Shown here in pieces: positions 30,141 through 47,310 of a stretch of DNA of 64,000 bases. The DNA is from Candidatus Staskawiczbacteria bacterium RIFOXYC1_FULL_38_18 (GTDB taxonomy: Bacteria > Patescibacteriota > Minisyncoccia > Minisyncoccales > Staskawiczbacteraceae), in NCBI GenBank assembly GCA_001822095.1, contig MHPP01000014.1, forward strand, positions 1,662-65,661, in the 5' to 3' direction. Under the pieces are notes generated by a model. It was not told the origin of the DNA. It saw nothing but the letters and a program-made list of their open reading frames with translations, and did not search any database. The position numbers were made by a program, and so were the translations under genes. The number at the start of each line of letters is the position of its first letter. Positions within the stretch are counted from its first letter, which is position 1.

Positions 30141-31337
30141 ATGATTTCAATTACTCCCAAAAAAATTATAATAACAACCATGGTAATCGCGTGCGCGGGA
30201 GGCGTTTTTGTCGGAGGAGCTTTTTTTGGGAGAAAAATGACCTACCAAGTCCCGCAGTCGGGGACGATAGACTTTTCCCTTTTTTGGGACTCTTACAACA
30301 AGCTTCAACAAAATTTTTTTGACCCGTCAAAAATTGACAGCCAGAAAATAATTTACGGGGCAATTGAAGGAATGGCAAAATCCCTTGACGACCCATATAC
30401 TTCGTTTTTTAACCCCGAAGAGGCGCAGAAATTTATGCAGGATTTGTCTGGGTCTTTTGAAGGCATTGGAGCCGAAATTGGAATTAAGAAGGAACAACTG
30501 ACAATTGTGGCGCCCCTAGAAGGAAGTCCGGCGCAAGCGTCCGGAATAAAAGCCGGAGACGTGATTATAAAAATTGATAACACCGAGGCGTCTGACCTGA
30601 CAACCGACGAAGCTGTTGGTTTAATTCGCGGAGCAAAGGGCACTGTGGTTACCCTAACGATTTTTAGAACAGGGTGGTCTGCCGCAAAAGATTTTAAAAT
30701 AACAAGGGACACAATTATTGTGCATCCTGCAAAATGGTCGCTCAAGAATGGAAATGTTGCCTATATCCAAATTACCCAGTTTGACGAGAACCTTGTTGCC
30801 GACTTCCAAAAGACAGTGGCCGAAATTTTACAAAGCCCCGCAGAAAAAATAGTTCTGGATTTAAGAAATAATCCTGGCGGATACCTTGAGGTTGCCCAAA
30901 ATATTGCGGGCTGGTTTTTGGAAAAAGGGCAGATTGTCACAATTGAAGACTTTGGTGGGAAAAAGGAGCAACAACTCTATAAGTCAGACGGAACAGCCGA
31001 GCTTTTGGGATACCCGATTGTTGTGTTAATAAACGAGGGTTCTGCTTCTGCGTCAGAGATATTGGCCGGATCAATAAGGGATAACAAGGGAGCCAAGCTT
31101 ATTGGAACAAAATCCTTTGGCAAAGGTTCTGTGCAGGAAATTTTAGATTTGCGGGGCGGGTCGTTTTTAAAAATAACAATTGCCAAATGGCTTACCCCGA
31201 AAGGTGCGTCAATTTCCGAGGTTGGCTTGTCTCCGGACGTTAAGGTTGATATTACCGATGAAGATGTGGAACAAGACAAAGACCCGCAACTTGATAAAGC
31301 CCTTGAAATTGTTAAATCTATCCCCACAGGAAAATAG
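30141..31337 (+). CDS. Carboxyl-terminal processing peptidase (S41 family, CtpA/Tsp-like) with PDZ domain
   Basis: An N-terminal anchor and a PDZ domain (GIKAGDVIIKID) are present. The S41 catalytic block GSASASEILAGSIRDNKGAKLIGTKSFGKGSVQ is present. Confidence 0.8.
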   Translation: MISITPKKIIITTMVIACAGGVFVGGAFFGRKMTYQVPQSGTIDFSLFWDSYNKLQQNFFDPSKIDSQKIIYGAIEGMAKSLDDPYTSFFNPEEAQKFMQDLSGSFEGIGAEIGIKKEQLTIVAPLEGSPAQASGIKAGDVIIKIDNTEASDLTTDEAVGLIRGAKGTVVTLTIFRTGWSAAKDFKITRDTIIVHPAKWSLKNGNVAYIQITQFDENLVADFQKTVAEILQSPAEKIVLDLRNNPGGYLEVAQNIAGWFLEKGQIVTIEDFGGKKEQQLYKSDGTAELLGYPIVVLINEGSASASEILAGSIRDNKGAKLIGTKSFGKGSVQEILDLRGGSFLKITIAKWLTPKGASISEVGLSPDVKVDITDEDVEQDKDPQLDKALEIVKSIPTGK

Positions 31338-31405
31338 AAGCTACTTTAATTTGAGACTCCCAGTAAATTGCAGAGACGAAAGATACAATTAAAAGTAAAT
31401 CAATT

Positions 31406-31432
31406 AAGCCCGAATAAAATTGGGCTTTTTTG
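31406..31432 (+). terminator. Rho-independent terminator
   Basis: aagcccgaataaaattgggctt is followed by TTTTTT. Confidence 0.7.
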
Positions 31433-31497
31433 TTATTATTGAATTCAAAACCAAAAAGTGCTAATTTTAATAAATAAAATAGGTAATAAATAAAAAT

Positions 31498-31890
31498 ATG
31501 AAATCTATTGTAATATGTGGAAGTTCTCGTTTTACAGAAGAAGCGAGGCAATTCGCAACTAAATTAAAAGAATTGGGTGTTATCGTATATGAGCCTCATT
31601 TTTACAGAGCTTCTGGTGGAAACTGGGCGGAAGTAAAAGATTTTGATAAAAAGTTTGTGGCTTTAGGTTTGGTGCACGACCATTTCCAAAAAATGAGATT
31701 AGCGGATGTAATTTATATTTATAACAAAGACGGATATGCAGGAGTAAGCACAAACATAGAAATAGGTTTTGCTATGGGTTTGAACAAGCCAATTTATGCC
31801 TTTTGTGAAAATGACGAAGAACCGCACAGAAAAGTTTTATTCAATAAAATTGTTTCAACCCCAGAAGAGTTATTAAAATTATTAAATTAA
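31498..31890 (+). CDS. DNPH1/Rcl-like 2'-deoxynucleoside 5'-phosphate N-hydrolase (nucleoside 2-deoxyribosyltransferase superfamily), paralog 1
   Basis: An N-terminal IVICGSSRF motif (DNPH1: YFCGSIRGG) and the C-terminal ADVIYIY...STNIEIGFAMGLNKPIYAF block (DNPH1: ADVVVAEVTQPSLGVGYELGRAVAFNKRILCLF), with a catalytic Glu. Confidence 0.55.
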   Translation: MKSIVICGSSRFTEEARQFATKLKELGVIVYEPHFYRASGGNWAEVKDFDKKFVALGLVHDHFQKMRLADVIYIYNKDGYAGVSTNIEIGFAMGLNKPIYAFCENDEEPHRKVLFNKIVSTPEELLKLLN

Positions 31891-31897
31891 ATAAAAA

Positions 31898-32470
31898 ATG
31901 AAAATAATTTTAGGTACAACCTCACCATATCGCATAGAAGCATTTAAGTTTTTGGAAATTGATTTTACAGCAGAGGGAAGCAAAGTGGACGAGTCTCAAG
32001 TAGACAGAAATAATCCAGAAGAATTAGTAAAAGAATTATCAAAATTAAAAGCAGAAGCAGTCGCAAAAAATCACAGTGATGCGATTATTATCGGGATGGA
32101 TTCAGTAGGCTATTTTAACGGAAAAATTCTTGAAAAACCAAAATCAAGAGAAGAAGGTTTTGAAAGATTAAAATCTCTTTCAGGAAACAATCACCAGTTT
32201 TATACTGGAATTCACATAGTAAATACCGCCTCAAATAAGGTAATTTCTAAAATAGTAAAAACAGAAATTTATTTAAGGAATTTTTCAGAAAAAGAAATTG
32301 AAACCTATCTCAACCAAGATAAATTCTATAATACTTACGCTCTTGGATATGACCCTTTGGGACATTACAGCTCAACTTTTGCCGAAAGGATAGAAGGAAG
32401 CTATAACAATTTTTTGAGAGGTATCCCTCTTGAAATTATGCCAGATTTAATTACTAATGCAAACAATTAA
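31898..32470 (+). CDS. maf: Maf-family nucleoside triphosphate pyrophosphatase
   Basis: KIILGTTSPYRIEAF, IIIGMDSVGYFNGKILEKP and the SGNNHQFYTGIHI blocks are typical of Maf/YhdE. Confidence 0.8.
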   Translation: MKIILGTTSPYRIEAFKFLEIDFTAEGSKVDESQVDRNNPEELVKELSKLKAEAVAKNHSDAIIIGMDSVGYFNGKILEKPKSREEGFERLKSLSGNNHQFYTGIHIVNTASNKVISKIVKTEIYLRNFSEKEIETYLNQDKFYNTYALGYDPLGHYSSTFAERIEGSYNNFLRGIPLEIMPDLITNANN

Positions 32471-32471
32471 A

Positions 32472-32897
32472 ATGAAAATAGCAATCGTTGGCAGTTCTCA
32501 TTTTTGCACAGAAATGGTTGAATATAGGGATAAATTGAAAGCTTTGGGACACGAATGTGAGTTGCACGAGCATTATGTTGCCAGGGCAAGCGGTCAAATG
32601 AGAGAATTGTGGGAGAGAATGCAAAAGGAACACGCAAAAGTTAAAATTGAGCACGATTATATCAGGTATCACTACAACGAAATTCTTAACAGCGATGCGG
32701 TTTTGGTTTTGAATTTTGACAAAAATGGAATCAAAAATTATATTGGTGGCAATACCTTGATAGAAATGGGTCAAGCGTATGTTAATAATAAAAAGATTTT
32801 TTTGTTAAATCCTATACCAGATATGCAATACAAAGAGGAAATTGAGGCATTGCAACCAGTTGTAATTAGTAGCAATCTTGATTTAATAAAGATATGA
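32472..32897 (+). CDS. DNPH1/Rcl-like N-hydrolase, paralog 2
   Basis: KIAIVGSSHF and DAVLVLNFDKNG...GGNTLIEMGQAYVNNKKIFLL are paralogous to the 31498 gene. Confidence 0.55.
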   Translation: MKIAIVGSSHFCTEMVEYRDKLKALGHECELHEHYVARASGQMRELWERMQKEHAKVKIEHDYIRYHYNEILNSDAVLVLNFDKNGIKNYIGGNTLIEMGQAYVNNKKIFLLNPIPDMQYKEEIEALQPVVISSNLDLIKI

Positions 32898-33457
32898 ACA
32901 CTAAATTATTAAAACATACAAAAGAACACTGCTTAAAAACTCTTGCGAAAAATAAAGTTTCTTTTGGTTCTGCAAAAGCCGACTCATATCTCCCAGGACA
33001 TATTAACGAGGTTGAAAAGTGTGTGGAAAGAATTATTAAAGATTATCCAGCAGATAGAGAAATAGTTTTATTATCTGTTTATTTGCACGACATTGGACAC
33101 GCACTTGGAAATCATAAAGACCACGAATTAAAGTCCGAAGCCGAAGCAAAGCGTTTTCTAAAAAAGATGGGTTTGATTGAAGACAAAATAAACAGGGTCG
33201 CTCACTGTGTAAGAGCTCACAGGTGCAAAGATGTTCAACCCGAAACCGTAGAGGCAAAGATTTTGGCAACAGCCGATTCTTTAAGCCATATGACAGATGG
33301 TTGCTATATGGATATGTTAATTGATAGAAGAAAGGATTTGGCACTTGGAAAACTTGAAAGGGATTATAGAGATATTGGCTTGTTTCCAAAAATAAAAAAA
33401 GAAATTATGCCCGTTTACAAAGCTTGGAAAGAATTGATAGAAGTATATCCTGAATGA
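32894..33457 (+). CDS. HD-domain phosphohydrolase
   Basis: The H...HD...H...D motif pattern is present (LSVYLHDIGHALG, AHCVRAHRC, LATADSLSHM). Confidence 0.7.
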   Translation: MNTKLLKHTKEHCLKTLAKNKVSFGSAKADSYLPGHINEVEKCVERIIKDYPADREIVLLSVYLHDIGHALGNHKDHELKSEAEAKRFLKKMGLIEDKINRVAHCVRAHRCKDVQPETVEAKILATADSLSHMTDGCYMDMLIDRRKDLALGKLERDYRDIGLFPKIKKEIMPVYKAWKELIEVYPE

Positions 33458-33458
33458 T

Positions 33459-34607
33459 ATGGAAAACGATGAACAACCAGAGATAATAGTAAAATTTATT
33501 AATGAAACAGGCGGAAAAAAATTATCCGAAAAGGAAAAGCGATTACGTTATTCTGTTAGGGTATGGAAAAAAAGATTAAAAAGGAGGAAAGTAATAGAAA
33601 GACGTAAAAAACACATAAGACGTCTTTTACAGGGAAAACCTCTTTCTCTTCATAATGACATCAAAACGAGGGTGAGATATAATGATGTAAGAGCCCCTGA
33701 AGATTTTTCTTTTTTGACAAACACGGAGGAGACAATAGATTTTTTGAATAGGATAGAATCTTATTTTAACAAACGCAAGCAGGTGTTCGTTGTTCTTAAA
33801 AATGTAAAAAATATCGACCATAGTGCCATAACAGTTTTACTTTCATTAATGTATAAATTTAGAGTCGCCAAAATAAAATTCAATGGCGATTTTCCTGATG
33901 ATTTAAAGGTGAAGGAAACAATCGTTGATTCCCAGTTTTTTAGAAAATTATTGTCTCCAATGTCGTCAGATATGGGTAATGATTATACTATGACAAAAAA
34001 TAATCAAATTTTTGCCAGAGCAAACACAATAGTTGTTTCAGAAATGGGAGAAAAAATTATGGAGGAATCCACGAAAACAATTTGGGGAGAGAGGAGAATA
34101 TGTAAGGGATTGCAAAAGACTTTGATTGAATTAATGCACAATACTAACAATCACGCCTCAAGAAGTGAGGACAACCAGGAGCACTGGTGGTTATCTGTTA
34201 ACCACGATAAAGAAAACAAAAAGGTTGATTTCTATTTTGTAGATTATGGACAGGGTATTCTTAGAAGTCTTGAAAGAAAATCTAATCCTAAAATATGGAA
34301 CAATTTTTGGGATAATTTTAAAAAGATGATAGACTTAGGGTCAGAACAAAAGGTCATCGAATGTCTCTTAAACGGAGAGCATTGGAGCCCAGAGCAAAGA
34401 ATACAGCCATATTATAGGGGAAAAGGATTGCCTAGCATAAAAGATTCCTTGAGTAGGGGGCAAATAAGTGATTTGCAGATAATAACAAACAATACACGTT
34501 CTGAAGTCGATTCAAATAATTTTATTCATCTGTCGAAAAATTTTAATGGCACCTTCATCCATTGGAAGTTAGAAAAAAATAACGAAAATAAAATATGGAA
34601 TATATAA
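33459..34607 (+). CDS. STAS-like + GHKL (histidine-kinase-like) ATPase domain protein
   Basis: A central STAS-like block (KQVFVVLKNVKNIDHSAITVLLSLMYKFR) is present. The C-terminal Bergerat-fold boxes are the N-box (ELMHNTNNHA), G1 (VDYGQGI) and G2 (RGKGLPSI). The N-terminus is highly basic. Confidence 0.5.
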   Translation: MENDEQPEIIVKFINETGGKKLSEKEKRLRYSVRVWKKRLKRRKVIERRKKHIRRLLQGKPLSLHNDIKTRVRYNDVRAPEDFSFLTNTEETIDFLNRIESYFNKRKQVFVVLKNVKNIDHSAITVLLSLMYKFRVAKIKFNGDFPDDLKVKETIVDSQFFRKLLSPMSSDMGNDYTMTKNNQIFARANTIVVSEMGEKIMEESTKTIWGERRICKGLQKTLIELMHNTNNHASRSEDNQEHWWLSVNHDKENKKVDFYFVDYGQGILRSLERKSNPKIWNNFWDNFKKMIDLGSEQKVIECLLNGEHWSPEQRIQPYYRGKGLPSIKDSLSRGQISDLQIITNNTRSEVDSNNFIHLSKNFNGTFIHWKLEKNNENKIWNI

Positions 34608-34930
34608 AAATTTTAATAGCAAAAGATTTTTCAAAAACGCCTGGTCCTCGCTATAAAAAGGAGGGGTCTTTTTCCGCTGAGCTTTTTTTAGAACAGATAT
34701 TGGAGAAAAAGTTTACAGATATTTTGGAAAAGAAGGATAAAAAAATAATTATTGATTTGGACGGAACGCTTGGCTATGGAACAAGCTTTTTGGAGGAAAC
34801 TTTCGGAGGGCTTGCCAGAAAATATGGAGCGGATAAAGTGAGTGAAAAAATTGAAGTTGCCTCGAAAGAGGAGCCGTGGCTTTTGGAGGATATTAAGAGC
34901 TATATTGAAGATGTCAAAAAGCAATCCTGA
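34595..34930 (+). CDS. DUF4325-like STAS-fold protein
   Basis: IIIDLDGTLGYGTSFLEETFGGLARKYG resembles the DUF4325/STAS-like motif. The start overlaps the previous gene by 13 nt, suggesting translational coupling. Confidence 0.45.
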   Translation: MEYIKILIAKDFSKTPGPRYKKEGSFSAELFLEQILEKKFTDILEKKDKKIIIDLDGTLGYGTSFLEETFGGLARKYGADKVSEKIEVASKEEPWLLEDIKSYIEDVKKQS

Positions 34931-35534
34931 TGGAGTACTAATTTTTATAATAATCTTTTTGGTTGGGGCAATAATCGGCTCGTGCATTTCTCTTGCGTTT
35001 CTCAACAAATATTCAACTTCGCCATCTGTTTCGATAGACCCAATAGATGGTATTTCTATATTCGTTAACGTGTTATTGGTAATATATGTAACCAGGACGT
35101 TGACTCGCAAAAACGAAGAGGAGAGGGTCGAAAAAGAAATTTTAATAAAACAACTGCAAGATTTTCAGGATTGTCTCGATAACACTATTACTAGATTGCT
35201 TTCAACGGAAAAGCTAAAACTGGTTGCGGTTAATGCTAATCTTAAGACGCTTAGAAGGAATTTTAATTCAATTCGTGAGTTGCTTAAGAAATATAATTTT
35301 ATTTCACAAGCTGAAGATAATGATATTTGTAACACCATAGACGCAATTCTAAGAGACATTAAGGATTTTTTTACTGATACGCCAAGAACTGGAGAAAATG
35401 GGGAAAAGGATGTTGGAGTTAATCAAGACGAAATTTCCTTAGGAGCACAGAATAGGCAGGGGATAGATGATTCAACTATGAAGGCAAAAGGAAAAATCTT
35501 TGAATTGGTTGTATTAATAAACAGAAAAGAATAG
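34915..35534 (+). CDS. Hypothetical single-TM, coiled-coil protein (third gene of the module)
   Basis: An internal Met (MSKSNPDG) overlaps the upstream stop. One TM helix is followed by predicted helical/coiled-coil sequence. No recognisable domain. Confidence 0.4.
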
Positions 35535-35559
35535 ACGCTTATTTTTTATATTTTAGGGA

Positions 35560-35586
35560 GAAGAGGCAAAAGTGCCTCTTTTTTCG
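35560..35586 (+). terminator. Rho-independent terminator
   Basis: agaggcaaaagtgcctct is followed by TTTTTT. Confidence 0.7.
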
Positions 35587-35709
35587 TGTTTTTGGGGTTG
35601 GTAAGAGTCGGATATTTTGGAGTTTCACGACTTGCAAAAAATATCAATCCGTTGTAATGTTTTAATATCGTAGTTTCGTTTCAGGGCTCTTTCACAAGGG
35701 AGACAGAAA

Positions 35710-36039
35710 GTGGACGGAGCAATTCTTGACCAGTTGACTGGCAAACAATACGATTTGCCTGTCTTTGAAAACGATTTGGTGAGGGTTGAATCTGCTGGGA
35801 GAGTTATCCGAGTCGGTATCAAAGACCGAGGGATGGCTTTCTCTTGGTGGGAACCGACTCATCCCTTCTCTGGTAACCGCAGTCTACCGCAACAGCGAGG
35901 TTGGGATTTTCAAGTGGAAACCCCCAACGAGAATGAGACCAGAGCGATTTTTTCAAAGGGAAGCGTGAGGCACGTTCTCACGCTCACCTGCACAAACCCC
36001 AACGTGAAGCCCAAGACCATTGAAGTGAAGTGGGATTAA
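35710..36039 (+). CDS. Hypothetical protein (moderately GC-rich gene)
   Basis: A GTG start has a good SD (AAGGGAGA). The 109-aa ORF is GC-richer than its surroundings. Confidence 0.4.
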   Translation: MDGAILDQLTGKQYDLPVFENDLVRVESAGRVIRVGIKDRGMAFSWWEPTHPFSGNRSLPQQRGWDFQVETPNENETRAIFSKGSVRHVLTLTCTNPNVKPKTIEVKWD

Positions 36040-36065
36040 GTTTTCAATTTTGAAAGGAAACGGCA

Positions 36066-36338
36066 ATGACCACCGCAAGCGACATTAAGAACGTTGCACA
36101 AAGTACCGAAGAAAATCCTTCTCGACTTGGATGCTTCATCTTGAAACCTCCCGTGAGGCTCAAGTATAAGCCAAGTGGGAAAATCGTCACCGCTTCTATG
36201 GTGGATATCAGCGGGAAGTATCCCAACCACGTCCACACGGAAGAGATGGGATACTGGTATCCAGCCGATAAATTTGAAATCGGCACAGAAGTTATAACCG
36301 TGGAGCCAGCCCCGATTGAGGACTTGCTTAACTCGTAG
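36066..36338 (+). CDS. Hypothetical protein (moderately GC-rich gene)
   Basis: An ATG with an SD (AAAGGAAA). The 90-aa ORF is co-directional with the previous gene. Confidence 0.4.
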   Translation: MTTASDIKNVAQSTEENPSRLGCFILKPPVRLKYKPSGKIVTASMVDISGKYPNHVHTEEMGYWYPADKFEIGTEVITVEPAPIEDLLNS

Positions 36339-36463
36339 TTAAGTAGGTCCAACCCGAGATAACGGAAATCGAAATCATAGCCCAATGACGGAAACGTTAG
36401 CAGGCTCTTTTTTTACAAACGGATAAGCTCGCATTTTCATTTATTTTTTGGTAGGATAAAAAT

Positions 36464-36895
36464 ATGAACGATAAGGAAAAATTAGTATTTTTTGCAAAAC
36501 AAAATTTAGGCAAGCCGTATAAATACGGAGCAAAGCCATCAGAAGCTCCCAAGACTTTTGATTGTTCAAGTTTTGTTCAATATATTTACAAAAAAGTTGG
36601 TATAGCTTTGCCAAGGACAGCTCTTGAGCAGGCTCATCTTGGTAAAAAAGTTAAACCCAAAAGAGAGTATTTGCAAATAGGTGATTTGATATTTATAAAA
36701 GGTATGGTTGGTAGATATAATGAAGAGTTTCCGCAAGGAATAGGACACGTTGCAATGTATATCGGAGATGGCAAAATAATACAGGCTAAATATCAAAAAA
36801 ATAAAAATGGGTCTGATGGTGGAAAAGTACAGGTAGATTCAGTCGCAAAAATAATAAATAGAAAAAATTTGGTTGTCATAAAAAGAATAATTTAA
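36464..36895 (+). CDS. NlpC/P60 (C40) cell-wall peptidase
   Basis: The catalytic Cys block FDCSSFVQYIY and the His block GHVAMYIGDGKIIQA are present. Confidence 0.75.
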   Translation: MNDKEKLVFFAKQNLGKPYKYGAKPSEAPKTFDCSSFVQYIYKKVGIALPRTALEQAHLGKKVKPKREYLQIGDLIFIKGMVGRYNEEFPQGIGHVAMYIGDGKIIQAKYQKNKNGSDGGKVQVDSVAKIINRKNLVVIKRII

Positions 36896-36903
36896 TTAAA
36901 TTT

Positions 36904-37155
36904 ATGTCGGAAAATTTAAGACCATTTGAAGAACAACCAGAAAAGGAGCAAACCCAAGAGCAGATTTTAGATGCTTTAGAGTCGGCATTTGAAAAAGGAG
37001 CTAAAGCGGAATTAACCGTCTCGGAACCAAGCGGTGAGTTAAGGATAAATTCAGTTTTTATTGAGGGGCTTGAGGGTGGAATGCTTTTTGTTTCTTCATC
37101 AAAAGATTCTCCCGTAATGGGAATACCGATTGGTGATGTTAAAAGGGTGGTATAA
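36904..37155 (+). CDS. Hypothetical small acidic protein
   Basis: An 83-aa ORF co-directional in the operon. Confidence 0.35.
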   Translation: MSENLRPFEEQPEKEQTQEQILDALESAFEKGAKAELTVSEPSGELRINSVFIEGLEGGMLFVSSSKDSPVMGIPIGDVKRVV

Positions 37156-37166
37156 GTCCCAAAAAT

Positions 37167-37832
37167 ATGGAAGATAAAATAATAAAGGTGTCCGAAACAA
37201 TAAAAGTAAACGATTCTTGGAAGGCGAGAACAGAATCTGGCTATCTTGTCAGTTCAAATAAGACGAAATGTATTGATTTGATTTCACATTCAGACCTTGA
37301 TGAAAATAATATCATAGATATATTGATTAGTTTACATATTATTCTGGAAGCTGGTCTGAACGCTTTTTACAGGAATATGGTGCTTATGTCGCTAAAAAAG
37401 GAGTTGGGCGAGTTCGAAGTTATGGAGAACGTGGACAGGGTCAGTTTTATAGATAAAACGGTCGCATTTATTTATTTCTCTAAGTTTGATTTTGAGGGAA
37501 AACTTGATGAGGCAAAAAAATACCACAGCATAATATCCGCTCTTAAGGATTTTTCAGCAATAAGAAATAAATTATTCCACGGACACTCGATAAGCACAAT
37601 CTTCGATGGAGAAAAAAACCGTCACTCGGAATTAAAGGGTAAAATTACTCTGGAAATGTTGATAGAGCAAATGAGAAAGTTTAGGTTTATCTTAGAGGGA
37701 ATGAGATTTTATTTTGATCGCCTGCAATCCAGTATGACTTCAAGTGGCAAGGAATCATTTAAAAAGGAGTATCTAAGCGATGAATTTTTACCGCATTTAG
37801 GTACTTTTGCAGACGTAGATGTAAAAGAATAA
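37167..37832 (+). CDS. HEPN-like (Rx4H motif) protein, possibly Abi_2/AbiD-like abortive infection protein
   Basis: AIRNKLFHGHS contains R-x4-H near the C-terminal third of an all-helical 221-aa protein. It lies in a mobile-element context. Confidence 0.4.
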   Translation: MEDKIIKVSETIKVNDSWKARTESGYLVSSNKTKCIDLISHSDLDENNIIDILISLHIILEAGLNAFYRNMVLMSLKKELGEFEVMENVDRVSFIDKTVAFIYFSKFDFEGKLDEAKKYHSIISALKDFSAIRNKLFHGHSISTIFDGEKNRHSELKGKITLEMLIEQMRKFRFILEGMRFYFDRLQSSMTSSGKESFKKEYLSDEFLPHLGTFADVDVKE

Positions 37833-37840
37833 ATAAATTT

Positions 37841-38458
37841 ATGATTTTAGATTCGTCAATTTCATCAATAACAAATTTAATCGGTAAATTTACGACAGAG
37901 CCGTTTTATTTTAAAGGATTTTCAGCCAGTGTTTTACCAGGTACGGTTGGAATGCCAGGTTTTAATTTAAAACAAAACACAGATAATTTTTATATGATTG
38001 ACTGGAGTTTGGCAATTAAAATGGCGAACTCCTTAAACGAAGATATTGTGATTGAGAATATAAAATCAGAATGGAGAGGAGTAAATGGTTTTGTATGTAA
38101 ATCTGACGATTTCTGTAACAGTATTTATAGAGTAAAAAGCGATGGCGATGTTGACGCAATAGAAAAATTATTGGCTGGAAATAAACAAAAAGTTTTGCTA
38201 CCGTTTTTAATGAAAAAGCAATCAGAAATTATTATTCAGGCGAATTTTGCGTTATACATATACAAAAAGAGGTTTTTGAGACACTTAGATATGGTCCATT
38301 TCAAAAAAATAGAAGTAAAAGAGCCAGACACATATCATCAATTGTATAGAAAAAGTTTAGTAAAGATAAGACTTAATGGTAAATGGAGGTCTTTAGTTCT
38401 AAAACCCCAGGAGTTTTTTGTTGCAGGCGATATTTTGAATATACCAGATACAAATTAA
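37841..38458 (+). CDS. Hypothetical protein
   Basis: A 205-aa ORF with no recognisable domain. Confidence 0.4.
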   Translation: MILDSSISSITNLIGKFTTEPFYFKGFSASVLPGTVGMPGFNLKQNTDNFYMIDWSLAIKMANSLNEDIVIENIKSEWRGVNGFVCKSDDFCNSIYRVKSDGDVDAIEKLLAGNKQKVLLPFLMKKQSEIIIQANFALYIYKKRFLRHLDMVHFKKIEVKEPDTYHQLYRKSLVKIRLNGKWRSLVLKPQEFFVAGDILNIPDTN

Positions 38459-38471
38459 ATAATAATATACT

Positions 38472-39497
38472 ATGAGTAAAAAAATTCTAATAATCGCAGG
38501 AATAGCAATTTTATTAACACTGATTTTTGGCGTTTTTGTTTTGTTGCAAATAAACAATTTAAGGAAACCACAGGTAAGCTCGCTTGAAGCACAAGCGAAA
38601 GCAATTCAAAATCAGATACAGCAGATAGATTCTGAATACAGGCAAAAGATGAATGAAATAACCGATAAGCAGAAACAAAATAACTGCATAGAGTCAAAAG
38701 ATGTTGAAATGATAAAGACGCTAACAGGCGAAAAACAAACAGAAAAACAATGGAGTATAGTTTCAATGGAGGGAATCTGTGGAGATTTATTCAATCAAAA
38801 CGAAGCCTTGGCAAAAGAGAGGTCTTACAAAACAAGTCAGCTACAAACACAGATGGACCTTTTAACCGCCCGAACGGCATCAGACAGAGAAAAGGCAATG
38901 ACTGCGATTAGAACTTTTATGGTTAAACCTGATTTGGAATTAGTGTATACTGGCACCAGACACCCATCCAATTTTAACGTTGGAGTTGTCGTAAATCGGG
39001 ATGAAGGTGGCTACACAATGGAAGGTTTTAGTGGTTGGGAAAGAAGAGTTGAAGTTTACCAACAAACGGAATATATCAACGACAGATGCGAAGTTTACGA
39101 ATATGAGGTGGATGTTAGAAATAATCAAATTGTAGAGATACACGTTCGTTATCCCGATGGGCTGGCAGGAATGAGTAGTGGTAAATGTACAAGCTACGGT
39201 TCAATGGAAGTTCCGTTAAAGACAAAAGACGAAATTGAAAAGGTAGCATTTGCGTATCTTAGCAGAGACCTCGAACACACAAAATTTTTAATTAGGTCTG
39301 ATATCAAGCCAGAATATCTCCCAAGTAAGACGATAGCGAAAAATCCTGCAATGAACGAATGGCGTTGGGAAGATAAGAGTTACAAACTCCCAGAAGGACT
39401 AACAAGCGACCCGTTCCCGTATCCTATGATTAGAATTATCATTTCAAGCGGAGGAAAGCTTGTCTACTATCTGAATACGACAGAACTATTTAATTAA
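38472..39497 (+). CDS. Hypothetical membrane-anchored coiled-coil protein
   Basis: An N-terminal TM helix is followed by a Q/K-rich coiled coil and a C-terminal globular region. Confidence 0.4.
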   Translation: MSKKILIIAGIAILLTLIFGVFVLLQINNLRKPQVSSLEAQAKAIQNQIQQIDSEYRQKMNEITDKQKQNNCIESKDVEMIKTLTGEKQTEKQWSIVSMEGICGDLFNQNEALAKERSYKTSQLQTQMDLLTARTASDREKAMTAIRTFMVKPDLELVYTGTRHPSNFNVGVVVNRDEGGYTMEGFSGWERRVEVYQQTEYINDRCEVYEYEVDVRNNQIVEIHVRYPDGLAGMSSGKCTSYGSMEVPLKTKDEIEKVAFAYLSRDLEHTKFLIRSDIKPEYLPSKTIAKNPAMNEWRWEDKSYKLPEGLTSDPFPYPMIRIIISSGGKLVYYLNTTELFN

Positions 39498-39525
39498 AGG
39501 GTAATTAAGTATATTTTTACAAATT

Positions 39526-39547
39526 GGGGCTAAATGCCCCTTTTTTA
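39526..39547 (+). terminator. Rho-independent terminator
   Basis: ggggctaaatgcccc is followed by TTTTTT. Confidence 0.7.
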
Positions 39548-39653
39548 TTACTGAATGTGTATGCCAAAACAAACCCAAGACAAATCCAAGGGGTGCCCAG
39601 TAAATCAAAAGGCAAAAGAGGTATGTTTGCTGGGGTGGAGGGAGTTAAGGTTT

Positions 39654-39683
39654 GATTGTGAGGTAATTTATGCTATAATTAAT
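39654..39683 (+). promoter_or_regulatory. sigma70-type promoter (TTGATT-16/17-TATAAT) with ~120-nt G/U-rich leader
   Basis: ttgattgtgaggtaatttatgcTATAAT is followed by a gtggtttcgttttgtatcgtatggtgtggtttt leader before the ATG at 39800. Confidence 0.5.
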
Positions 39684-39799
39684 GTATTAAGGTAAGGTTT
39701 TTTTGTATGGTGGCTCTTTAATAAGATAATTGTGGTTTCGTTTTGTATCGTATGGTGTGGTTTTGATAAATTAAATAATTAAATCAAAAACATATCATT

Positions 39800-40135
39800 A
39801 TGGAAAACAAAATAGGTTATATTGAAAAATACCCCAATATCCCAATGAAAAAAAGTTTACTCTGCCTTTTGCTTGGAATCGAGCTGGAAACGCTTAAAGA
39901 AGTTATTAGGTTATCCAATAAAAAAATATCACTTGAGAAGGCGGTTAATATTGTTTGGGAGGAAGGACAAAGACTAATGGCTTGCGGACAGCTAAAGATA
40001 GGCGAGCCAAAATCTGATAATGACCCAATACCCGTTTATCAAACCGAAACGGGAAAGAGAGAGTTCATTATTCGAGTTCTTAATAAAATTAACCCAAAAT
40101 TGAGCAAGAAATTTAAGCAGGATAAAAAGAAGTAA
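39800..40135 (+). CDS. Hypothetical protein
   Basis: A 111-aa ORF followed by a terminator (cccttttagcaaggg+T6 at 40152-40175). Confidence 0.4.
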   Translation: MENKIGYIEKYPNIPMKKSLLCLLLGIELETLKEVIRLSNKKISLEKAVNIVWEEGQRLMACGQLKIGEPKSDNDPIPVYQTETGKREFIIRVLNKINPKLSKKFKQDKKK

Positions 40136-40392
40136 AAGTAAAAATCCATTTAGCCCTTTTAGCAAGGGTTTTTTGGTTATATTGATTTTTAGCAATTTTG
40201 GCGGTAAGATTAAAATAATTTAATATTGGTTGCCTAACCCTTAAAATTTATTTTAAGGTATGGCAAAAAGTCGTTGTGCATATCAAACCCGTCATTCGGG
40301 GGTGTGCACAACGCTATACAGGGAAACTTGTATATGGGTCGCAAGACTCACCCCAGTGGCGGGTTTTATGTTGTGCCACAATTATTAAAAAT

Positions 40393-40713
40393 ATGGAAAA
40401 TCAAACAGAAGAAACAAAAAGTAGTTTTTTTGAACATTGGAAGCGTTCAGTTTTAGTAATTGTAGGATTTGTAGCTATCTGCATATTTATTGGAAGCCTG
40501 CACTTATCCTCTGAACAAAGCGGGGCATTGGTGATAGCAATACCGTTATGTTTATTTTTATACTTCTTACCAGCATATATCGCTTTCAAAAAAGAAAAGA
40601 AAAATAAGGTTGCTATTTTTGCACTAAATTTGTTTTTAGGATGGACACTTATTGGCTGGATTGTTGCACTGGTTTGGAGCTTAACTTATGAAGAAAGAAA
40701 AAATATAAATTGA
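40393..40713 (+). CDS. Superinfection immunity (Imm_superinfect-like) membrane protein
   Basis: YFLPAYIAFKKEKKNKVAIFALNLFLGWTLIGWIVALVWSL matches the phage superinfection-immunity family pattern. The ORF track starts it at 40276; Met 40393 is preferred. Confidence 0.55.
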   Translation: MENQTEETKSSFFEHWKRSVLVIVGFVAICIFIGSLHLSSEQSGALVIAIPLCLFLYFLPAYIAFKKEKKNKVAIFALNLFLGWTLIGWIVALVWSLTYEERKNIN

Positions 40714-41153
40714 ATATCATAACAATTATGAACAAAAAAATTAAGTATATTATAATAGCTGTTTTAGTCTTGTTTGTTGGCTTGCCCGCTATTGCGATGG
40801 GAAGCTCTATAACCAATTCTCTTATTCACGGAAAATCTATACCAGAAGCTATTGAGATTTTATCCACACAAATTGACTCCCTGATTAGCAGAGTTGAAAT
40901 TTTGGAAACTAAACAAATCGAACAGGAGCGAACAATCGCCTGTAATTTTGCAGACGAAGCCCTGCAAAAAGCTCAAATGGAGGGTGGAATAATTGACGCT
41001 GATTTAAAAGGTATAGACGAGTTGATTACCAAAATAACTTACCAACGCGATAATTCTCCGCAAAGCCAATATGAAATGTGGCAATCACGGTTGGATAAGG
41101 TTCGGAGCATAAAAGAGCAATATGATTCTGCCAAAGAAAAATGTAAACAATAA
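40710..41153 (+). CDS. Hypothetical secreted/anchored helical protein
   Basis: An N-terminal hydrophobic segment is present in this 147-aa protein. Confidence 0.4.
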   Translation: MNIITIMNKKIKYIIIAVLVLFVGLPAIAMGSSITNSLIHGKSIPEAIEILSTQIDSLISRVEILETKQIEQERTIACNFADEALQKAQMEGGIIDADLKGIDELITKITYQRDNSPQSQYEMWQSRLDKVRSIKEQYDSAKEKCKQ

Positions 41154-41165
41154 GCATAAAAATAG

Positions 41166-41193
41166 TTGACACGGCTCGTTGAAGTGCTATAAT
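41166..41193 (+). promoter_or_regulatory. sigma70 promoter TTGACA-16-TATAAT
   Basis: aatagTTGACAcggctcgttgaagtgcTATAATtaaaa. Confidence 0.65.
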
Positions 41194-41199
41194 TAAAAA

Positions 41200-41394
41200 G
41201 TAGAAATAGAAGTTCTACATAAAAAATAAACGAAGGGAAGGTAAAATTTAATATCTATACTAACCGTAGGTGAAATAAACTGCGGGAAAAAAATAAACAT
41301 AAAAGGAGATATCTCCTCTGTTTGATTTTTTCCCAACAGACTCACTTATTGTAGTGGTTCTAAAGAAAAAGCGACAGAGATGTCGTTTTTTTCT
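41200..41394 (+). ncRNA. Candidate ~190-nt small RNA (promoter to terminator, no ORF)
   Basis: It lies between a consensus promoter and an intrinsic terminator (gcgacagagatgtcgt + T7 at 41371-41393). It contains the GGAGATATCTCC palindrome. No start codon follows the internal SD-like AAAGGAG. Confidence 0.3.
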
Positions 41395-41437
41395 GTTTTA
41401 GGGGGTCCGCACAAATGATATTAACAAAAATTATTTT

Positions 41438-41692
41438 ATGGAAAAAGAAAAAGAGCTAATAAATATGCAGAGGTGCTCAAGATTTGAAAGCTGCGATATT
41501 GCAAGATGTCCATTGGATTATTTTATGGATGAAAGGGTTGAGCATAAAGAAGACGAAGTCTGCGTTTTGAGAAAACTGCAAGGGAAAGTTAGAACAAGGC
41601 GAATGAAAGGCATCCTGACACCCAAAATGAGGAGTCTTGCCAACTTTGTGTATAAGAAAAATTTTAAAATCAACCAGGGAGCGAATAATTAA
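41438..41692 (+). CDS. Hypothetical small Cys-containing protein
   Basis: An 84-aa ORF; it contains CSRFESCDIARC. Confidence 0.35.
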   Translation: MEKEKELINMQRCSRFESCDIARCPLDYFMDERVEHKEDEVCVLRKLQGKVRTRRMKGILTPKMRSLANFVYKKNFKINQGANN

Positions 41693-41711
41693 ATAACCTT
41701 GAATCAAAAAT

Positions 41712-42524
41712 ATGACAAACACAAACCAAAGCGTAGAAATTGAGGATGGTAGTAATGATAAAAAGTATTTTACAATAATACCAAATTATATTTTAAATCA
41801 TTCCACGCCATACGACAGAGATGTTTATATTCAAATGAAAAGAATAGCTGGTGAACACGGAACTTGTTGGACATCCCAAAAAACATTAGCTAAACAATGT
41901 GGAGTTAGCATCAATCGATTAAAAAAATCATTGAGTTATCTTTTAGATAACAAATGGATAAAATATATGGGAACTAAAAAGGTTGGAACTAAAGGCGGGG
42001 GGCAGGAGGTCAACGAATACAAAATAGTTGATTTGTGGAAAATGAACGGTGAATTTTATGAAATCAAGGGAGTGTCGCCAGACGATATACCTGCAAAACA
42101 AGGGGTATCACTAATAGAACCAAGGGAATGTCACAAAAAAATCAGAGGGGTGTCGCTGGATGATAACAAAGAAGAACCCATTAATAATAAACCCATTAAA
42201 GAAGAGGCGGGCGATAAGGAAAATCTTATTAAAGAAGTGGTGGAGAAATGGAATTCTTATGCCAAACCGTTAGAGGGATATAGAAATAAAACACTGAATA
42301 AATTTGGTCTCCCGAAATGTAAAGGTATAACAGCGGACATTAGGGTCGTTTTTTACAGGCTTATGAAGGAAAAAAGAACAAAGGAGGCAATGTTGGAATC
42401 TATAAAAAATTATATGAATGAAGTAATTAATAGAAGCCCTGATAATGACTATGCGATTCACAGATTTTCGTTTTATGAGTTTTTTAATCAGGATAATGGT
42501 TTTGTAAAATTTAGTAACAAATAA
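41712..42524 (+). CDS. Phage/plasmid replication-initiation-like HTH protein (DnaD/HTH_36-like)
   Basis: FTIIPNYILNH...DRDVYIQMKRIAGEHGTCWTSQKTLAKQCGVSINRLKKSLSYLLDNKWI is an N-terminal wHTH typical of replisome organiser/Rep proteins. Confidence 0.45.
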   Translation: MTNTNQSVEIEDGSNDKKYFTIIPNYILNHSTPYDRDVYIQMKRIAGEHGTCWTSQKTLAKQCGVSINRLKKSLSYLLDNKWIKYMGTKKVGTKGGGQEVNEYKIVDLWKMNGEFYEIKGVSPDDIPAKQGVSLIEPRECHKKIRGVSLDDNKEEPINNKPIKEEAGDKENLIKEVVEKWNSYAKPLEGYRNKTLNKFGLPKCKGITADIRVVFYRLMKEKRTKEAMLESIKNYMNEVINRSPDNDYAIHRFSFYEFFNQDNGFVKFSNK

Positions 42525-42531
42525 AAAATTT

Positions 42532-43776
42532 ATGACAGATTTAACTTGGCACACAGAAAAACGAAAAGTTAATGACTTACTCCCATTTAAGGGTAACGCA
42601 AGAAAAGAAGATGAAAAACAATCATTTGATTTAAGAAAGAGTTTTGAGAAGTTTGATTTAGTAGAAATACCCGCAATAAATACGGACAATACTACTTTGG
42701 CGGGAAACAGAAGATTAAGAATGCTTCAATTACTTGGGAGAGGAGAAGAAATGATTGACGTTAGGGTTCCGAACAGAGCTTTAACAACGGAGGAGGTGAA
42801 GGAATATAATTTAAGAAGTAATAAAAATACGGCTTCTTGGGATATTGGCTTGCTTGCAAATTTTGACGAAGGTTTGTTGAAGGAGGTCGGCTGGGAAGGT
42901 TGGGAGTTGGATGAAATATTTAGTCCAAATGTTGAAGATGATGATTCATTTGATGTTGAATCAGAGACTAAAAAAATAACAGAGCCAAAAGTTAAGTTTG
43001 GCGATTTGTATGAAGTAAACGGGCACAGAATTTTATGCGGAAATAGTCAGGACCCAGAACGGGTCGAAAAATTAATGGATAGAAAGGTCGCAAAATTAAT
43101 TTTTACAAGCCCGCCATATAATATGGCTGGGAAGATGTATAAAAATTATTCTGACAATTTGAAAAGCGAGGAATATATAAAATTTAACCTTGATGTCCTC
43201 CAAAATTGTAAAAGGTTTTTGAAAGGATTTTGTTTTTGGAACATTTCTTATAACAAAAACGCCAGGTCTGAATTTATTGAAATAATCTATAAGATTATTA
43301 AGGATACTGGCTTGCAGTTTGTAGAGCTAATTGTCTGGGACAAGGGGCACGCCCTCCCAATAGTTTCAAAACAAGGGCTGACGAGAAGGTATGAGGACGT
43401 GTTATTGGTTGGCGATAACGAAAGTGTACAAAGTGATTTGGAAATATATTTTTGTGGGGCGAATGACAAAAAAGTATTTTTCAACAAAAAAAACCAAAAA
43501 GGAATCACAAATTATTGGAGAGTTAATACAAACCAAGCTCAACAGAAAAATCATTTGGCGTGCTTTCCAGTAGCACTCCCAATCAAAGGAATTGAATTGA
43601 TGACACAAAGAGGCGATATTGTATTGGACCCATTTTTGGGAAGCGGGACCACTTTAATAGCATCGGAAAGAACTGGTAGAAAATGTTTTGCTTGTGAATT
43701 GGACCCTTTGTATGTTGAGTTGGCTCTAAATCGTTTTAAATATTTGTTTGGCAAAGAGGCGATAAAAATATGTTAG
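42532..43776 (+). CDS. ParB-like nuclease N-terminal domain fused to DNA N6-adenine/N4-cytosine methyltransferase
   Basis: A ParB-N/Srx fold occupies the N-terminus. The motif IV SPPY (IFTSPPYNM) and a C-terminal AdoMet motif DPFLGSGTT are present. This is a typical phage orphan MTase architecture. Confidence 0.7.
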   Translation: MTDLTWHTEKRKVNDLLPFKGNARKEDEKQSFDLRKSFEKFDLVEIPAINTDNTTLAGNRRLRMLQLLGRGEEMIDVRVPNRALTTEEVKEYNLRSNKNTASWDIGLLANFDEGLLKEVGWEGWELDEIFSPNVEDDDSFDVESETKKITEPKVKFGDLYEVNGHRILCGNSQDPERVEKLMDRKVAKLIFTSPPYNMAGKMYKNYSDNLKSEEYIKFNLDVLQNCKRFLKGFCFWNISYNKNARSEFIEIIYKIIKDTGLQFVELIVWDKGHALPIVSKQGLTRRYEDVLLVGDNESVQSDLEIYFCGANDKKVFFNKKNQKGITNYWRVNTNQAQQKNHLACFPVALPIKGIELMTQRGDIVLDPFLGSGTTLIASERTGRKCFACELDPLYVELALNRFKYLFGKEAIKIC

Positions 43777-44234
43777 AAGATTCAAACGAATTAAATCAGG
43801 AACCTAATAAGATTGAGGCAGAAAATCTCCATAGCAGTGGTGGTTTTGTGGATAAGCCCGAGAGAGATGAGCAGGGCAGATTTGTGAATGGACATCCTAA
43901 ATTGGGCGGAACGAGAATGGGCTATCTCTCTCTTCGAAAGGTTTTACGTGAAATGTTACAGGAAGCCAAAGAGGTAACCATTAACGACCGAAAAGAACAA
44001 AGGACAAGAATGGAAATTTTATTAGAAGTTCTGTTTAAGAAGGCTGTTGGCGGAGACCTGGGGGCAATTCGTGAAATATTTGACAGAATTGAGGGAAAAC
44101 CAAAACCATTAGGCGTAAATGATATGCCTGACGAAATTAATCTGACACAAGTTTTTCAGCAAATATATAATCAAAGTGAGGAAGCTAGAAGGCAGAAGGA
44201 GGAAGAGAATAATTTAGAAAATAAAATTAAATAA
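43770..44234 (+). CDS. Hypothetical protein
   Basis: A 154-aa ORF whose start overlaps the MTase stop. Confidence 0.4.
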   Translation: MLEDSNELNQEPNKIEAENLHSSGGFVDKPERDEQGRFVNGHPKLGGTRMGYLSLRKVLREMLQEAKEVTINDRKEQRTRMEILLEVLFKKAVGGDLGAIREIFDRIEGKPKPLGVNDMPDEINLTQVFQQIYNQSEEARRQKEEENNLENKIK

Positions 44235-44245
44235 GATTTTTAAAA

Positions 44246-44449
44246 ATGAAAAGGAATGAATTAAAAACTAATTATACGTCAAAAAAGGATGAAGGAAGAA
44301 GAAACTTCGCCCTTAATTATATCGCTAACCATATTAAAAAGAATTTACAGAACCTATCTAAATTTAAGTGGGGAGGTGGGGGATTTGCTTGTTTTGTGAA
44401 TTTGGAGCGACCCCACAGCGAACAAGAGGGTCAAGACAAAAGTAAATAA
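44246..44449 (+). CDS. Hypothetical small protein
   Basis: A 67-aa ORF. Confidence 0.3.
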   Translation: MKRNELKTNYTSKKDEGRRNFALNYIANHIKKNLQNLSKFKWGGGGFACFVNLERPHSEQEGQDKSK

Positions 44450-44609
44450 ACTACCCTGGGTAAAATGAGTAGATTTTGAGGGTAATAAGGCAAAACAAAC
44501 AATCAAGTGATTATTCAGTCCTGTCCGTAGAGAGAGGCTTTGACGCAAGGGTTGTCCAGCGTCATCATCACGCCACTGGTAAAGTAAATTAAAAAGCCAG
44601 TGTAAAAAT

Positions 44610-45155
44610 ATGGACAACAAAAAATGTGCTTTGTATCTACGGGTCAGCAAAAGCGACCAGACAACATTGAATCAAGAATTGGAATTGAAAGGTTATTGTC
44701 AGCGGAACGATTGGGATATTTTCAATGTTTACAAAGACGAAGGCGTGTCTGGCTCAAAGACATCAAGACCAGAGTTAGATAAAATGTTAAAAGATGTGCG
44801 GGACAAAAAGTTTGAAGCGGTGATTGTTTGGAAATTTGACCGCTTAGGCAGGTCAACGGCTCATCTTTTACAGGTTTTAGAAGAAATGAAGAATAAAGGA
44901 ATCAGATTGATAGCAACAAGCCAAAGCATAGACACAGACACCGCAATGGGTAAATTCTTTTTTACAATCTTATCTGGGTTTGCTGAAATGGAACGAGGAA
45001 TAATAACAGAAAGAATAAATTTGGGTTTAGCAAGGGTAAAAAAACAAGGGAAAAAGTTGGGTCGCCCATCAGGCTCAAAAGATAAAAGTTATCGTAAAAA
45101 GTCGGGATATTTGCTTCGCTGGCAAAATCAACAAAATCTAAAAGTTTCAATTTAA
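44610..45155 (+). CDS. Small serine recombinase (resolvase/invertase family)
   Basis: The catalytic Ser (ALYLRVSKSDQ) is in a resolvase N-domain, with FDRLGRS and a C-terminal HTH. Confidence 0.8.
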   Translation: MDNKKCALYLRVSKSDQTTLNQELELKGYCQRNDWDIFNVYKDEGVSGSKTSRPELDKMLKDVRDKKFEAVIVWKFDRLGRSTAHLLQVLEEMKNKGIRLIATSQSIDTDTAMGKFFFTILSGFAEMERGIITERINLGLARVKKQGKKLGRPSGSKDKSYRKKSGYLLRWQNQQNLKVSI

Positions 45156-45159
45156 AAAT

Positions 45160-46776: not shown

Positions 46777-46787
46777 AGTAGAATACA

Positions 46788-46821
46788 CGATATAATTAAA
46801 AATTTAAAATTTTAAATTCAA
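46788..46821. repeat. 34-bp AT-rich palindromic sequence; copy 2, 12 nt after the integrase stop (candidate att-like site)
   Basis: ataattaaaaatttaaaattttaaattcaaaatt is 33/34 identical to 2987-3020. Confidence 0.7.
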
Positions 46822-47303: not shown

Positions 47304-47310
47304 AAAATAC

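Follow-up and report, generated by a model that had tools for sequence, protein, structure and literature searches.

The subject of this analysis is a three-gene cassette of Candidatus Staskawiczbacteria bacterium RIFOXYC1_FULL_38_18. The window, meaning the whole stretch of DNA that was analysed, comprises 64,000 nucleotides of contig MHPP01000014.1. The three genes are called K, S and E here. They lie on the forward strand, overlap each other and are followed by an intrinsic terminator (Table 1). K encodes a predicted kinase that combines a STAS-like domain with a GHKL domain, S a small free STAS-like protein, and E a membrane protein. An earlier note on this DNA, the sequence-only reading, had described three open reading frames (ORFs), the overlap of the first two and a strong terminator. 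The ORF list and the stem and T run of the terminator agree with it on all of these.

Table 1. Features of the K-S-E cassette, in window coordinates.
Feature	Position	Strand	Description
Gene K	33459..34607	+	382-aa protein: Lys/Arg-rich N-terminal helix, STAS-like domain, predicted SpoIIAB/RsbW-type GHKL Ser/Thr kinase domain
K residues 1-72, N-terminal tail	33459..33674	+	strongly basic; predicted long helix 24-57, predicted local distance difference test score (pLDDT) 82-94
K residues 75-165, STAS-like domain	33681..33953	+	
K residues 182-382, predicted GHKL (Bergerat-fold) kinase domain	34002..34604	+	
K N box, E224-L-M-x-N228-T-x-N-H-A233	34128..34157	+	E224, L225, M226, N228, T229, H232 and A233 invariant in 60 sequences
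K G1 box, D262-Y-G264-Q-G266	34242..34256	+	D262, G264 and G266 invariant in 60 sequences
K G2 box, G321-K-G323-L-P325	34419..34433	+	G321, K322, G323 and P325 invariant in 60 sequences
Gene S	34595..34930	+	111-aa free STAS-like protein, DUF4325 family; 13-nt overlap with K
S Ser64 codon (AGC)	34784..34786	+	predicted phospho-acceptor in G-Y-G-T-S-F-L-E-E; invariant
Gene E	34911..35534	+	207-aa membrane protein; 20-nt overlap with S
E transmembrane (TM) helix 1, about residues 8-30	34932..35000	+	Kyte-Doolittle 2.92; AlphaFold2 (AF2) helix 6-34; G19-x-x-x-G23
E TM helix 2, about residues 44-61	35040..35093	+	conserved S49/T53/A57 stripe
E helical-bundle domain, residues 62-205	35094..35525	+	predicted cytoplasmic; beta-hairpin 168-177
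Intrinsic terminator	35556-35585	+	13-pair stem, 5 G-C pairs, 4-nt loop, T-rich tail; ends the operon

The ATG of K is found 2 nt past the stop codon of an upstream HD gene. The ORF finder placed the start of E at GTG 34842; starting at ATG 34911 yields a protein of 207 aa. The ATG is most likely the true start, because a 207-aa database protein is 100% identical to this product. That protein is a hypothetical protein from Candidatus Staskawiczbacteria bacterium RIFOXYD1_FULL_39.

Using hidden Markov models (HMMs) of the three proteins, K, S and E were found in this order, overlapping or abutting, in 84 out of 84 loci. Eighty of these come from species-representative genomes and four from contig look-ups; two duplicate one Epilithonimonas locus. 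Three genes on each side were clustered for 82 neighbourhoods. No conserved fourth gene was found this way, the largest neighbour cluster having 7 members. Given this complete linkage and the lack of a conserved fourth gene, K-S-E is a strict three-gene module, and a chance origin of the three ORFs can be dismissed. The sequence-only reading had already treated the genes as one set, and their joint recurrence elsewhere bears it out.

The hosts span more than 10 phyla. They include Bacteroidota (many), Patescibacteria, Gammaproteobacteria, Verrucomicrobiota, Acidobacteriota, Nitrospirota, Fibrobacterota, Cloacimonadota, Omnitrophota and one Vallitalea. Flavobacterium, Sphingobacterium, Parabacteroides, Alistipes and Polaribacter are among the carriers that can be cultivated.

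Some loci contain fused or split genes. In L069 (6905-7839), S continues into the beginning of E, while K is split in L015 (5998-7083) and E in L041 (7371-7989). These are probably frameshifts or assembly errors, and possibly decaying copies.

A word-indexed search with K returned 242 homologues, nearly all of about 360 aa and unannotated. In an HMM scan over 1.84 billion representatives, with clusters at 50% identity, 2943 clusters matched with E<=1e-3; a cut-off of 1e-10 left 1957 of them and one of 1e-30 left 901. K also matches phrog_3364 (E 1.7e-37).

K has no family in Pfam, NCBIfam or PADLOC. The Pfam search gives only a sub-threshold hint of STAS (E 0.098), with no HATPase_c_2 or HATPase_c match at E<=0.1, and a PDB sequence-profile search came back empty, so without a GHKL match. 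The best match of the predicted structure is SpoIIAB as found in its complex with sigma-F, and RsbW is matched as well. The region of about residues 75-165 matches RsbV (score 9.6), SLC26 STAS domains, RsbS and MlaB. A G3 motif (G364-T-F366) is invariant or nearly so in the 60-sequence alignment, in addition to the boxes of Table 1. Because of these structural matches to SpoIIAB/RsbW and RsbV, together with the invariant catalytic boxes, K is modelled as an anti-sigma-type GHKL kinase that is preceded by a STAS domain and, at the N-terminus, by a basic tail. The two folds that the sequence-only reading assigned to the first gene were thus recovered, by structure and not by sequence profile, and the N, G1 and G2 boxes it pointed out are invariant or nearly so.

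The basic tail of the source protein has 26 Lys/Arg versus 10 Asp/Glu ahead of P80. The tail is about 60-70 aa long; across the family, its mean net charge is +17 over about 61 residues, and the pI of K is 9.7. The tail sits where the related kinase CapK, discussed below, has a domain of the helix-turn-helix (HTH) type.

Several other assignments of K were rejected. K is not a two-component sensor histidine kinase: there is no HisKA/HATPase_c match in Pfam and no DHp/His domain, the STAS domain precedes the GHKL domain, and no response regulator is found among the conserved neighbours. Structurally, it clusters with SpoIIAB/RsbW instead. The MORC-like alternative offered in the sequence-only reading was dropped, as were paraMORC and MutL-type ATPases, given the lack of an S5-fold transducer domain and the lower structural scores. 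Finally, the name MlaB, which JGI attaches to the homologue P0020 only, does not fit, as K has a kinase domain and no ABC transporter gene lies next to it.

S matches Pfam PF14213 (DUF4325, "STAS-like") with an E of 3.4e-14, which is the family it had been assigned to earlier. Sixteen columns are invariant over 60 sequences, including L55-D56, G60, S64, L66-E67-E68 and F70-G-G-L73. S also matches the C-terminal part of phrog_5816. The equivalent of Ser64 is kept even in divergent versions on a Leptospira plasmid and in a Helicobacter prophage.

A weak local match was seen between S (residues 34-90) and the PADLOC model of the DISARM protein DrmA (positions 320-376 of 1750, E 0.0043). This hints, by sequence, that some DrmA proteins may contain a DUF4325-like insert.

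None of Pfam, NCBIfam, PADLOC and PHROG has a family for E. E is the fastest evolving of the three proteins, with a mean p-distance of 0.79 versus 0.58 for K and 0.50 for S. In the AF2 model, the first TM helix (6-34) is followed by a short loop and a second TM helix that starts at 44 and continues past 61 as one long helix up to 98. Beyond that lie helices 104-127 and 138-155, a beta-hairpin and a final helix 179-205. This model was built on a shallow alignment of 16 sequences and has a pLDDT of 77. Two TM segments are predicted in 72 of the 87 E homologues. In TM helix 1, G19 is present in 90% and G23 in 78%, and small residues occupy both positions in 76 of 87 sequences. The sole invariant residue of E is T155, in L-L-T-x-T-P (codon 35373-35375).

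The mean Lys/Arg counts of E are 2.1 before TM helix 1, 1.0 in the loop and 4.1 after TM helix 2. Since these favour an N-in/C-in topology, the sequence indicates that the bundle is probably cytoplasmic, within reach of K and S. The third gene had been described earlier as overlapping S and encoding a membrane-anchored coiled-coil protein. This was approximately right: the overlap (20 nt) and the membrane anchor (two TM helices) stand, and the coiled coil becomes a 2-TM hairpin with a helical bundle.

The second-best viral structural match of E is orf1 of phage HP1 (U24159, 1698-2315), a protein of 205 aa whose gene adjoins int (Foldseek E 9e-3, TM-score 0.51). No kinase or STAS gene is found alongside HP1 orf1, which makes it a weak lead.

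Two systems published by Chambers et al. (EMBO J 2026, PMC13373217) resemble the triad. In the first, single-stranded DNA (ssDNA) activates CapK (HTH-STAS-GHKL), which then phosphorylates Ser54 of CapS. CapS is a repressor made of a STAS and a winged HTH (wHTH) domain, and its phosphorylation lifts the repression of CBASS, Bub and other immune operons. A CapK N218A mutant loses kinase function (PMC13373217). The second is the three-gene operon vapKSC, which encodes VapK (STAS-GHKL), the STAS antitoxin VapS (phospho-site S48) and the PIN toxin VapC. VapK is also activated by ssDNA, and the resulting phosphorylation sets the toxin free; it is VapS and not the kinase that binds the effector VapC. 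The operon protects E. coli against phage Bas42, and 36% of its loci have a known immune gene no more than 10 kb away (PMC13373217). The VapK, VapS, CapK and CapS sequences used here were taken from the supplementary files of that paper.

With hhalign, the alignment of the K profile to VapK spans the entire GHKL domain, at E 6e-4, or 1e-4 when the profile is broadened. The alignment to CapK begins where the STAS domain ends and reaches through G2; its E is 1.6e-4, and the broadened profile gives 1.4e-5 at a probability of 80%. All boxes line up: the N box of K aligns with N218 of CapK, G1 with VVDFGVGI of VapK and ISDSGLGI of CapK, and G2 with the RGLGL motif of both. The alignment to CapK also takes in an 'F..P...GFF' motif, and the hairpin with which CapK contacts ssDNA (K237/K239) aligns with a conserved D-K-x-N-K-K of K. 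In two-sequence searches, the Leptospira K and CapK are 29% identical over 113 aa (E 1.4e-8), and the K of the divergent family member L092 and VapK are 24% identical over 194 aa (E 1.3e-5). Judged by these alignments, divergent family members bridge K to CapK and VapK.

VapS has been crystallised (PDB 9Z7O) and matches DUF4325 with an E of 2.7e-17; it is thus in the same Pfam family as S. Ser64 of S aligns with S48 of VapS and S54 of CapS (hhalign, MAFFT), both of them phosphorylation sites established by experiment (PMC13373217). A PDB profile search with S failed to recover VapS (9z7o), even though this entry is present in the searched set. The relation of S to VapS therefore rests on the common Pfam family and on the hhalign/MAFFT alignment.

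The triad and vapKSC share their gene order of kinase, small STAS protein and effector. In both, a STAS-GHKL kinase comes first, with aligned N, G1, G2 and G3 boxes, and a DUF4325 protein with a Ser at the known (VapS) or predicted (S) phospho-site comes second; VapS and S also each have a short conserved C-terminal helix. The third genes differ: that of vapKSC encodes a PIN nuclease, whereas that of the triad encodes a 2-TM helical-bundle protein, with no PIN match in 84 of 84 loci. K is also only distantly related to VapK (the hhalign E being about 1e-4) and has the extra basic tail, and VapS lacks a P-G-x-R-Y...E-G..S-G-E motif that is conserved in S.

With CapK/CapS, the triad shares a STAS-GHKL kinase adjoining a STAS substrate, in which a conserved Ser marks the beginning of helix 2. 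However, where CapK carries its N-terminal HTH, K has a Lys/Arg-rich helix without an HTH match. CapS has a wHTH (HTH_24 match) and is itself not matched by DUF4325, whereas S is a STAS domain only. Without this DNA-binding domain S cannot act as a repressor. CapK/CapS sits upstream of a variable immune operon, whereas the triad always has E downstream, followed by unrelated genes, often on the other strand. A transcriptional controller of the CapK/CapS type was therefore rejected, with no HTH in K, no wHTH in S and no regulated operon downstream.

These comparisons support the view that the triad is a kinase/STAS-substrate switch, probably kin to VapKSC and CapK/CapS and set apart by its membrane third gene. 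It would be neither of the two, because it fails on the third gene of VapKSC and on the HTH and wHTH of CapK/CapS. A literature search on DUF4325, on partner-switching and anti-phage defence, and on STAS, GHKL and transmembrane proteins found no K-S pair coupled to a membrane protein. The sequence-only reading had called the system one of an undescribed type. For the logic of a kinase with a STAS substrate and an effector this no longer holds, as it has been known since 2026 (PMC13373217). The version with a membrane protein, as a large and widespread family without annotation, appears to be new.

Four tightly packed nucleotide-metabolism genes (31498-33457) lie directly upstream of the source triad and are apparently co-transcribed with it. 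The first is like a nucleoside 2-deoxyribosyltransferase (NDT) gene and the second is Maf; a further small NDT-like ORF, which has no Pfam match, and an HD hydrolase with weak similarity to Cas3/Cas10-HD follow. Because the nearest terminator-like site upstream is only found at 31406-31427, K-S-E probably forms the distal end of an operon of seven genes in this genome. Outside the window, this linkage is seen only in contigs from that species; it is absent in a relative with 64% identity and at all other loci. The NDT-like, Maf and HD genes were for that reason rejected as parts of the system.

The region of about 31400-46800 is flanked by an S41 peptidase (30141-31337) and CTP synthase (47260-48960). 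Besides the NDT-like, Maf and HD genes and the triad, it contains an NlpC/P60 hydrolase (36464-36895) and several ORFs without a family. Towards the far end lie Imm_superinfect, HTH_36 (41712), an N6/N4 DNA methylase (42532), DUF5681 (43770), a small resolvase (44610) and a large serine recombinase (45160-46776). From this content the region is probably a genomic island. The prophage-like and nucleotide-hydrolase surroundings reported earlier are as described, with the hydrolases upstream and the phage-like and recombinase genes downstream.

Two further observations concern the window. A LOOT RNA motif (Rfam RF03000) is found on the forward strand at 40231-40350, with 87 bits where the gathering score is 46; it overlaps the 5' end of the Imm_superinfect ORF (40276-40713). 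At 10947-11858 the GC content peaks at 0.58, versus about 0.38 for the genome. This peak holds two long ORFs, 10953-11858 on the forward and 10947-11795 on the reverse strand, neither with a Pfam match; the product of the forward one is rich in Ala, Glu and Arg. The segment may be foreign DNA.

At other loci the flanks vary, and they often hold restriction-modification, TIR, caspase or integrase genes. The 150 ORFs found as immediate (±1) neighbours include type I restriction-modification subunits, ResIII, SWI2/SNF2 and Eco57I-type methylases. Also present are TIR_2, caspase, Schlafen/AlbA_2+HATPase_c_4, DUF4007, mad2, phage integrases and HTH proteins. Among the 136 second (±2) neighbours are ResIII (6), HsdR (3), integrases (3), RhuM, YhcG/DUF1016, RadC and AAA_5. 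In one Epilithonimonas locus, the triad lies between genes for RtcB, WYL and DUF4011-helicase-MTES on the one side and an HTH gene on the other. The pattern resembles the immune-gene proximity reported for vapKSC, in that both are patchy and found near defence genes.

Mobile copies exist as well. A divergent and shorter triad is carried by plasmid p4 of Leptospira interrogans (L085, 3956-5784), beside an MNT/HepT toxin-antitoxin pair and ParB, and its third gene matches the E HMM (E 6e-6). Another such triad is found in the Helicobacter prophage BK070146 (L086, 3632-5206), a few genes from a terminase gene on the opposite strand. In both, the third gene encodes a small TM and helical protein, which suggests a broader superfamily whose effectors would include proteins of 134-166 aa with a single TM helix. 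In the gene table of Francisella phage KIRK, a 293-aa hypothetical protein, a DUF4325 protein and a TM protein lie between cI and int (PMC7924643). Judged by this table, the trio matches the triad pattern. IMG/VR has six contigs with K, of which four hold complete triads and a fifth a divergent one; on the sixth, the triad runs into the contig edge. Searches of phage and plasmid collections with tblastn gave one divergent match each, and a search seeded with the Helicobacter K returned only itself.

Taken together, it is about an even bet (a probability of roughly 0.5) that the three proteins form a self-contained, kinase-gated switch of the CapK/VapK type, which has the membrane protein as its output and a role in conflict. 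K would be a STAS-GHKL serine kinase; its fold and catalytic boxes are recovered, and the activity would follow from them. In the resting cell, S would hold E inactive via the cytoplasmic four-helix-bundle domain, by analogy with VapS and VapC. A trigger would then activate K. By analogy with the ssDNA that activates CapK and VapK, this is probably a nucleic acid derived from infection or damage, to which the basic tail and the STAS/GHKL groove would bind. Such a trigger is plausible because of the +17 tail and the conserved basic hairpin. K would phosphorylate S at the invariant Ser64, a site that is assigned by alignment, and phosphorylated S would release E. Freed E may oligomerise, possibly via its GxxxG helix, and damage or depolarise the membrane, leading to growth arrest or death. 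The phage infection would thereby be aborted, or the loss of the element punished. The switch is probably one-way, as in abortive infection or addiction, because the cassette has no phosphatase. As speculation, Thr155 of E may be a second target of the kinase.

A kinase/antagonist pair with a membrane partner is also what the sequence-only reading had proposed, and the folds, Ser64 and the linkage in all 84 loci speak for it. Its alternative of a phage-defence or element-stabilising role fits the restriction-modification, TIR, caspase, Schlafen and integrase genes in the flanks and the divergent plasmid and prophage copies. A bolder version can be put forward only tentatively. It holds that the triad is a third, so far undescribed architectural branch of CapK/VapK, a pan-phylum abortive-infection or addiction system that extends to genome-reduced bacteria of the candidate phyla radiation, to plasmids and to prophages. 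In it, a nucleic-acid-sensing Ser kinase would phosphorylate a DUF4325 'antitoxin' and so open a 2-TM membrane pore of the GxxxG type. On this bolder version, E would also be the first membrane effector of bacterial immunity known to be gated by phosphorylation.

Several observations weigh against the switch with E as its output. The similarity of the K profile to CapK and VapK, which are single sequences, is modest, and within the STAS half the alignment is incomplete. No model of PADLOC 2.0.0 matches K or E, and S has only the weak DrmA match there. Structure searches find no known pore-former similar to E, whose fold is a generic helical bundle. Recognisable genes for defence or mobile elements make up only roughly 10-15% of the immediate neighbours, a raw share that comes without a genome-wide background. 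The operon shared with nucleotide-metabolism genes in the source genome could hint at a housekeeping link. Lastly, mirror-tree partial correlations over 77 triads are 0.59 for K-E, 0.39 for S-E and 0.32 for K-S, and the bootstrap confidence interval of the difference between K-E and S-E excludes 0. This does not favour a VapS-VapC-like contact between S and E, although the method is weak and confounded by shared phylogeny and the shortness of S.

The mirror-tree result bears on a different wiring of the same three proteins, after the example of SpoIIAB. Here K would bind the cytoplasmic domain of E to sequester or activate it, unphosphorylated S would displace K, phosphorylation of S would reset the switch, and the output would still be E. 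The structural match of K to SpoIIAB in its sigma-F complex and to RsbW fits this, as do the correlations and the strict conservation of the triad. However, in VapKSC, the closest characterised homologue, it is the STAS protein that binds the effector (PMC13373217), and the binding of K to E is putative. This wiring is considered unlikely. Equally unlikely is that E stands at the input, as a sensor of membrane or envelope stress that controls K, with a K-S relay to an unlinked target in what would be housekeeping signalling. Many triad loci do have ordinary housekeeping neighbours, and the operon of the source genome also holds Maf, HD and NDT-like genes. Yet the bundle is predicted to be cytoplasmic and not periplasmic, and with no output domain in S and no conserved fourth gene there is no visible target. 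The patchy spread over more than 10 phyla, with plasmid and prophage copies, fits a mobile conflict cassette better than core signalling.

The resemblance to anti-sigma modules also allows for K and S to be a classical anti-sigma/anti-anti-sigma pair, of the RsbW/RsbV or SpoIIAB/SpoIIAA type, for a sigma factor elsewhere, with gene E as an accessory. The triad has the GHKL fold with N, G1 and G2 boxes and STAS folds that match RsbV and SpoIIAA, and the predicted Ser phospho-acceptor is likewise at the N-terminus of a STAS helix. The differences make this reading very improbable. No sigma-factor family is found among the Pfam-scanned neighbours in the window (a few small nearby ORFs being outside that scan) or among the 25 most frequent neighbour families, in line with the earlier remark that none is nearby, and the 82 neighbourhoods show no conserved fourth gene. 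PP2C/SpoIIE is also not among the 25 most frequent neighbour families listed; one locus has an unrelated PTP-type phosphatase. Unlike RsbW and SpoIIAB, K has a STAS fusion and a basic tail, and the third partner is a membrane protein. The host moreover is a reduced bacterium of the candidate phyla radiation, and the cassette moves horizontally between phyla.

Other known systems are further removed. The kinase SiaB of Pseudomonas aeruginosa and its DUF1987 STAS-like partner SiaC have the diguanylate cyclase SiaD as output and the PP2C phosphatase SiaA; the triad has no genes of the SiaD or SiaA type. Membrane effectors of abortive infection, like the 2-TM proteins of CBASS and Pycsar or the Cas13b accessory protein Csx28, show no specific kinship with E in sequence or fold. 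The effectors of the CBASS and Pycsar type are gated by a nucleotide second messenger, whereas in the proposed model E would be gated by the kinase/STAS pair.

If the switch with E as its output is correct, the kinase/STAS-substrate pair known from CapK/CapS and VapKSC would be a general modular trigger, which can be connected to a repressor, a PIN nuclease or a membrane-disrupting effector. A large family would be added to the candidate immune and addiction repertoire, of about 900 clusters at E<=1e-30 and about 2,900 at E<=1e-3. Functions would become available for a DUF4325 subfamily, for PHROG 3364 and for an unannotated family of membrane proteins. The cultivable hosts make the cassette directly testable. 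For the Patescibacteria, whose phage defences are poorly known, it would be a rare candidate defence cassette.

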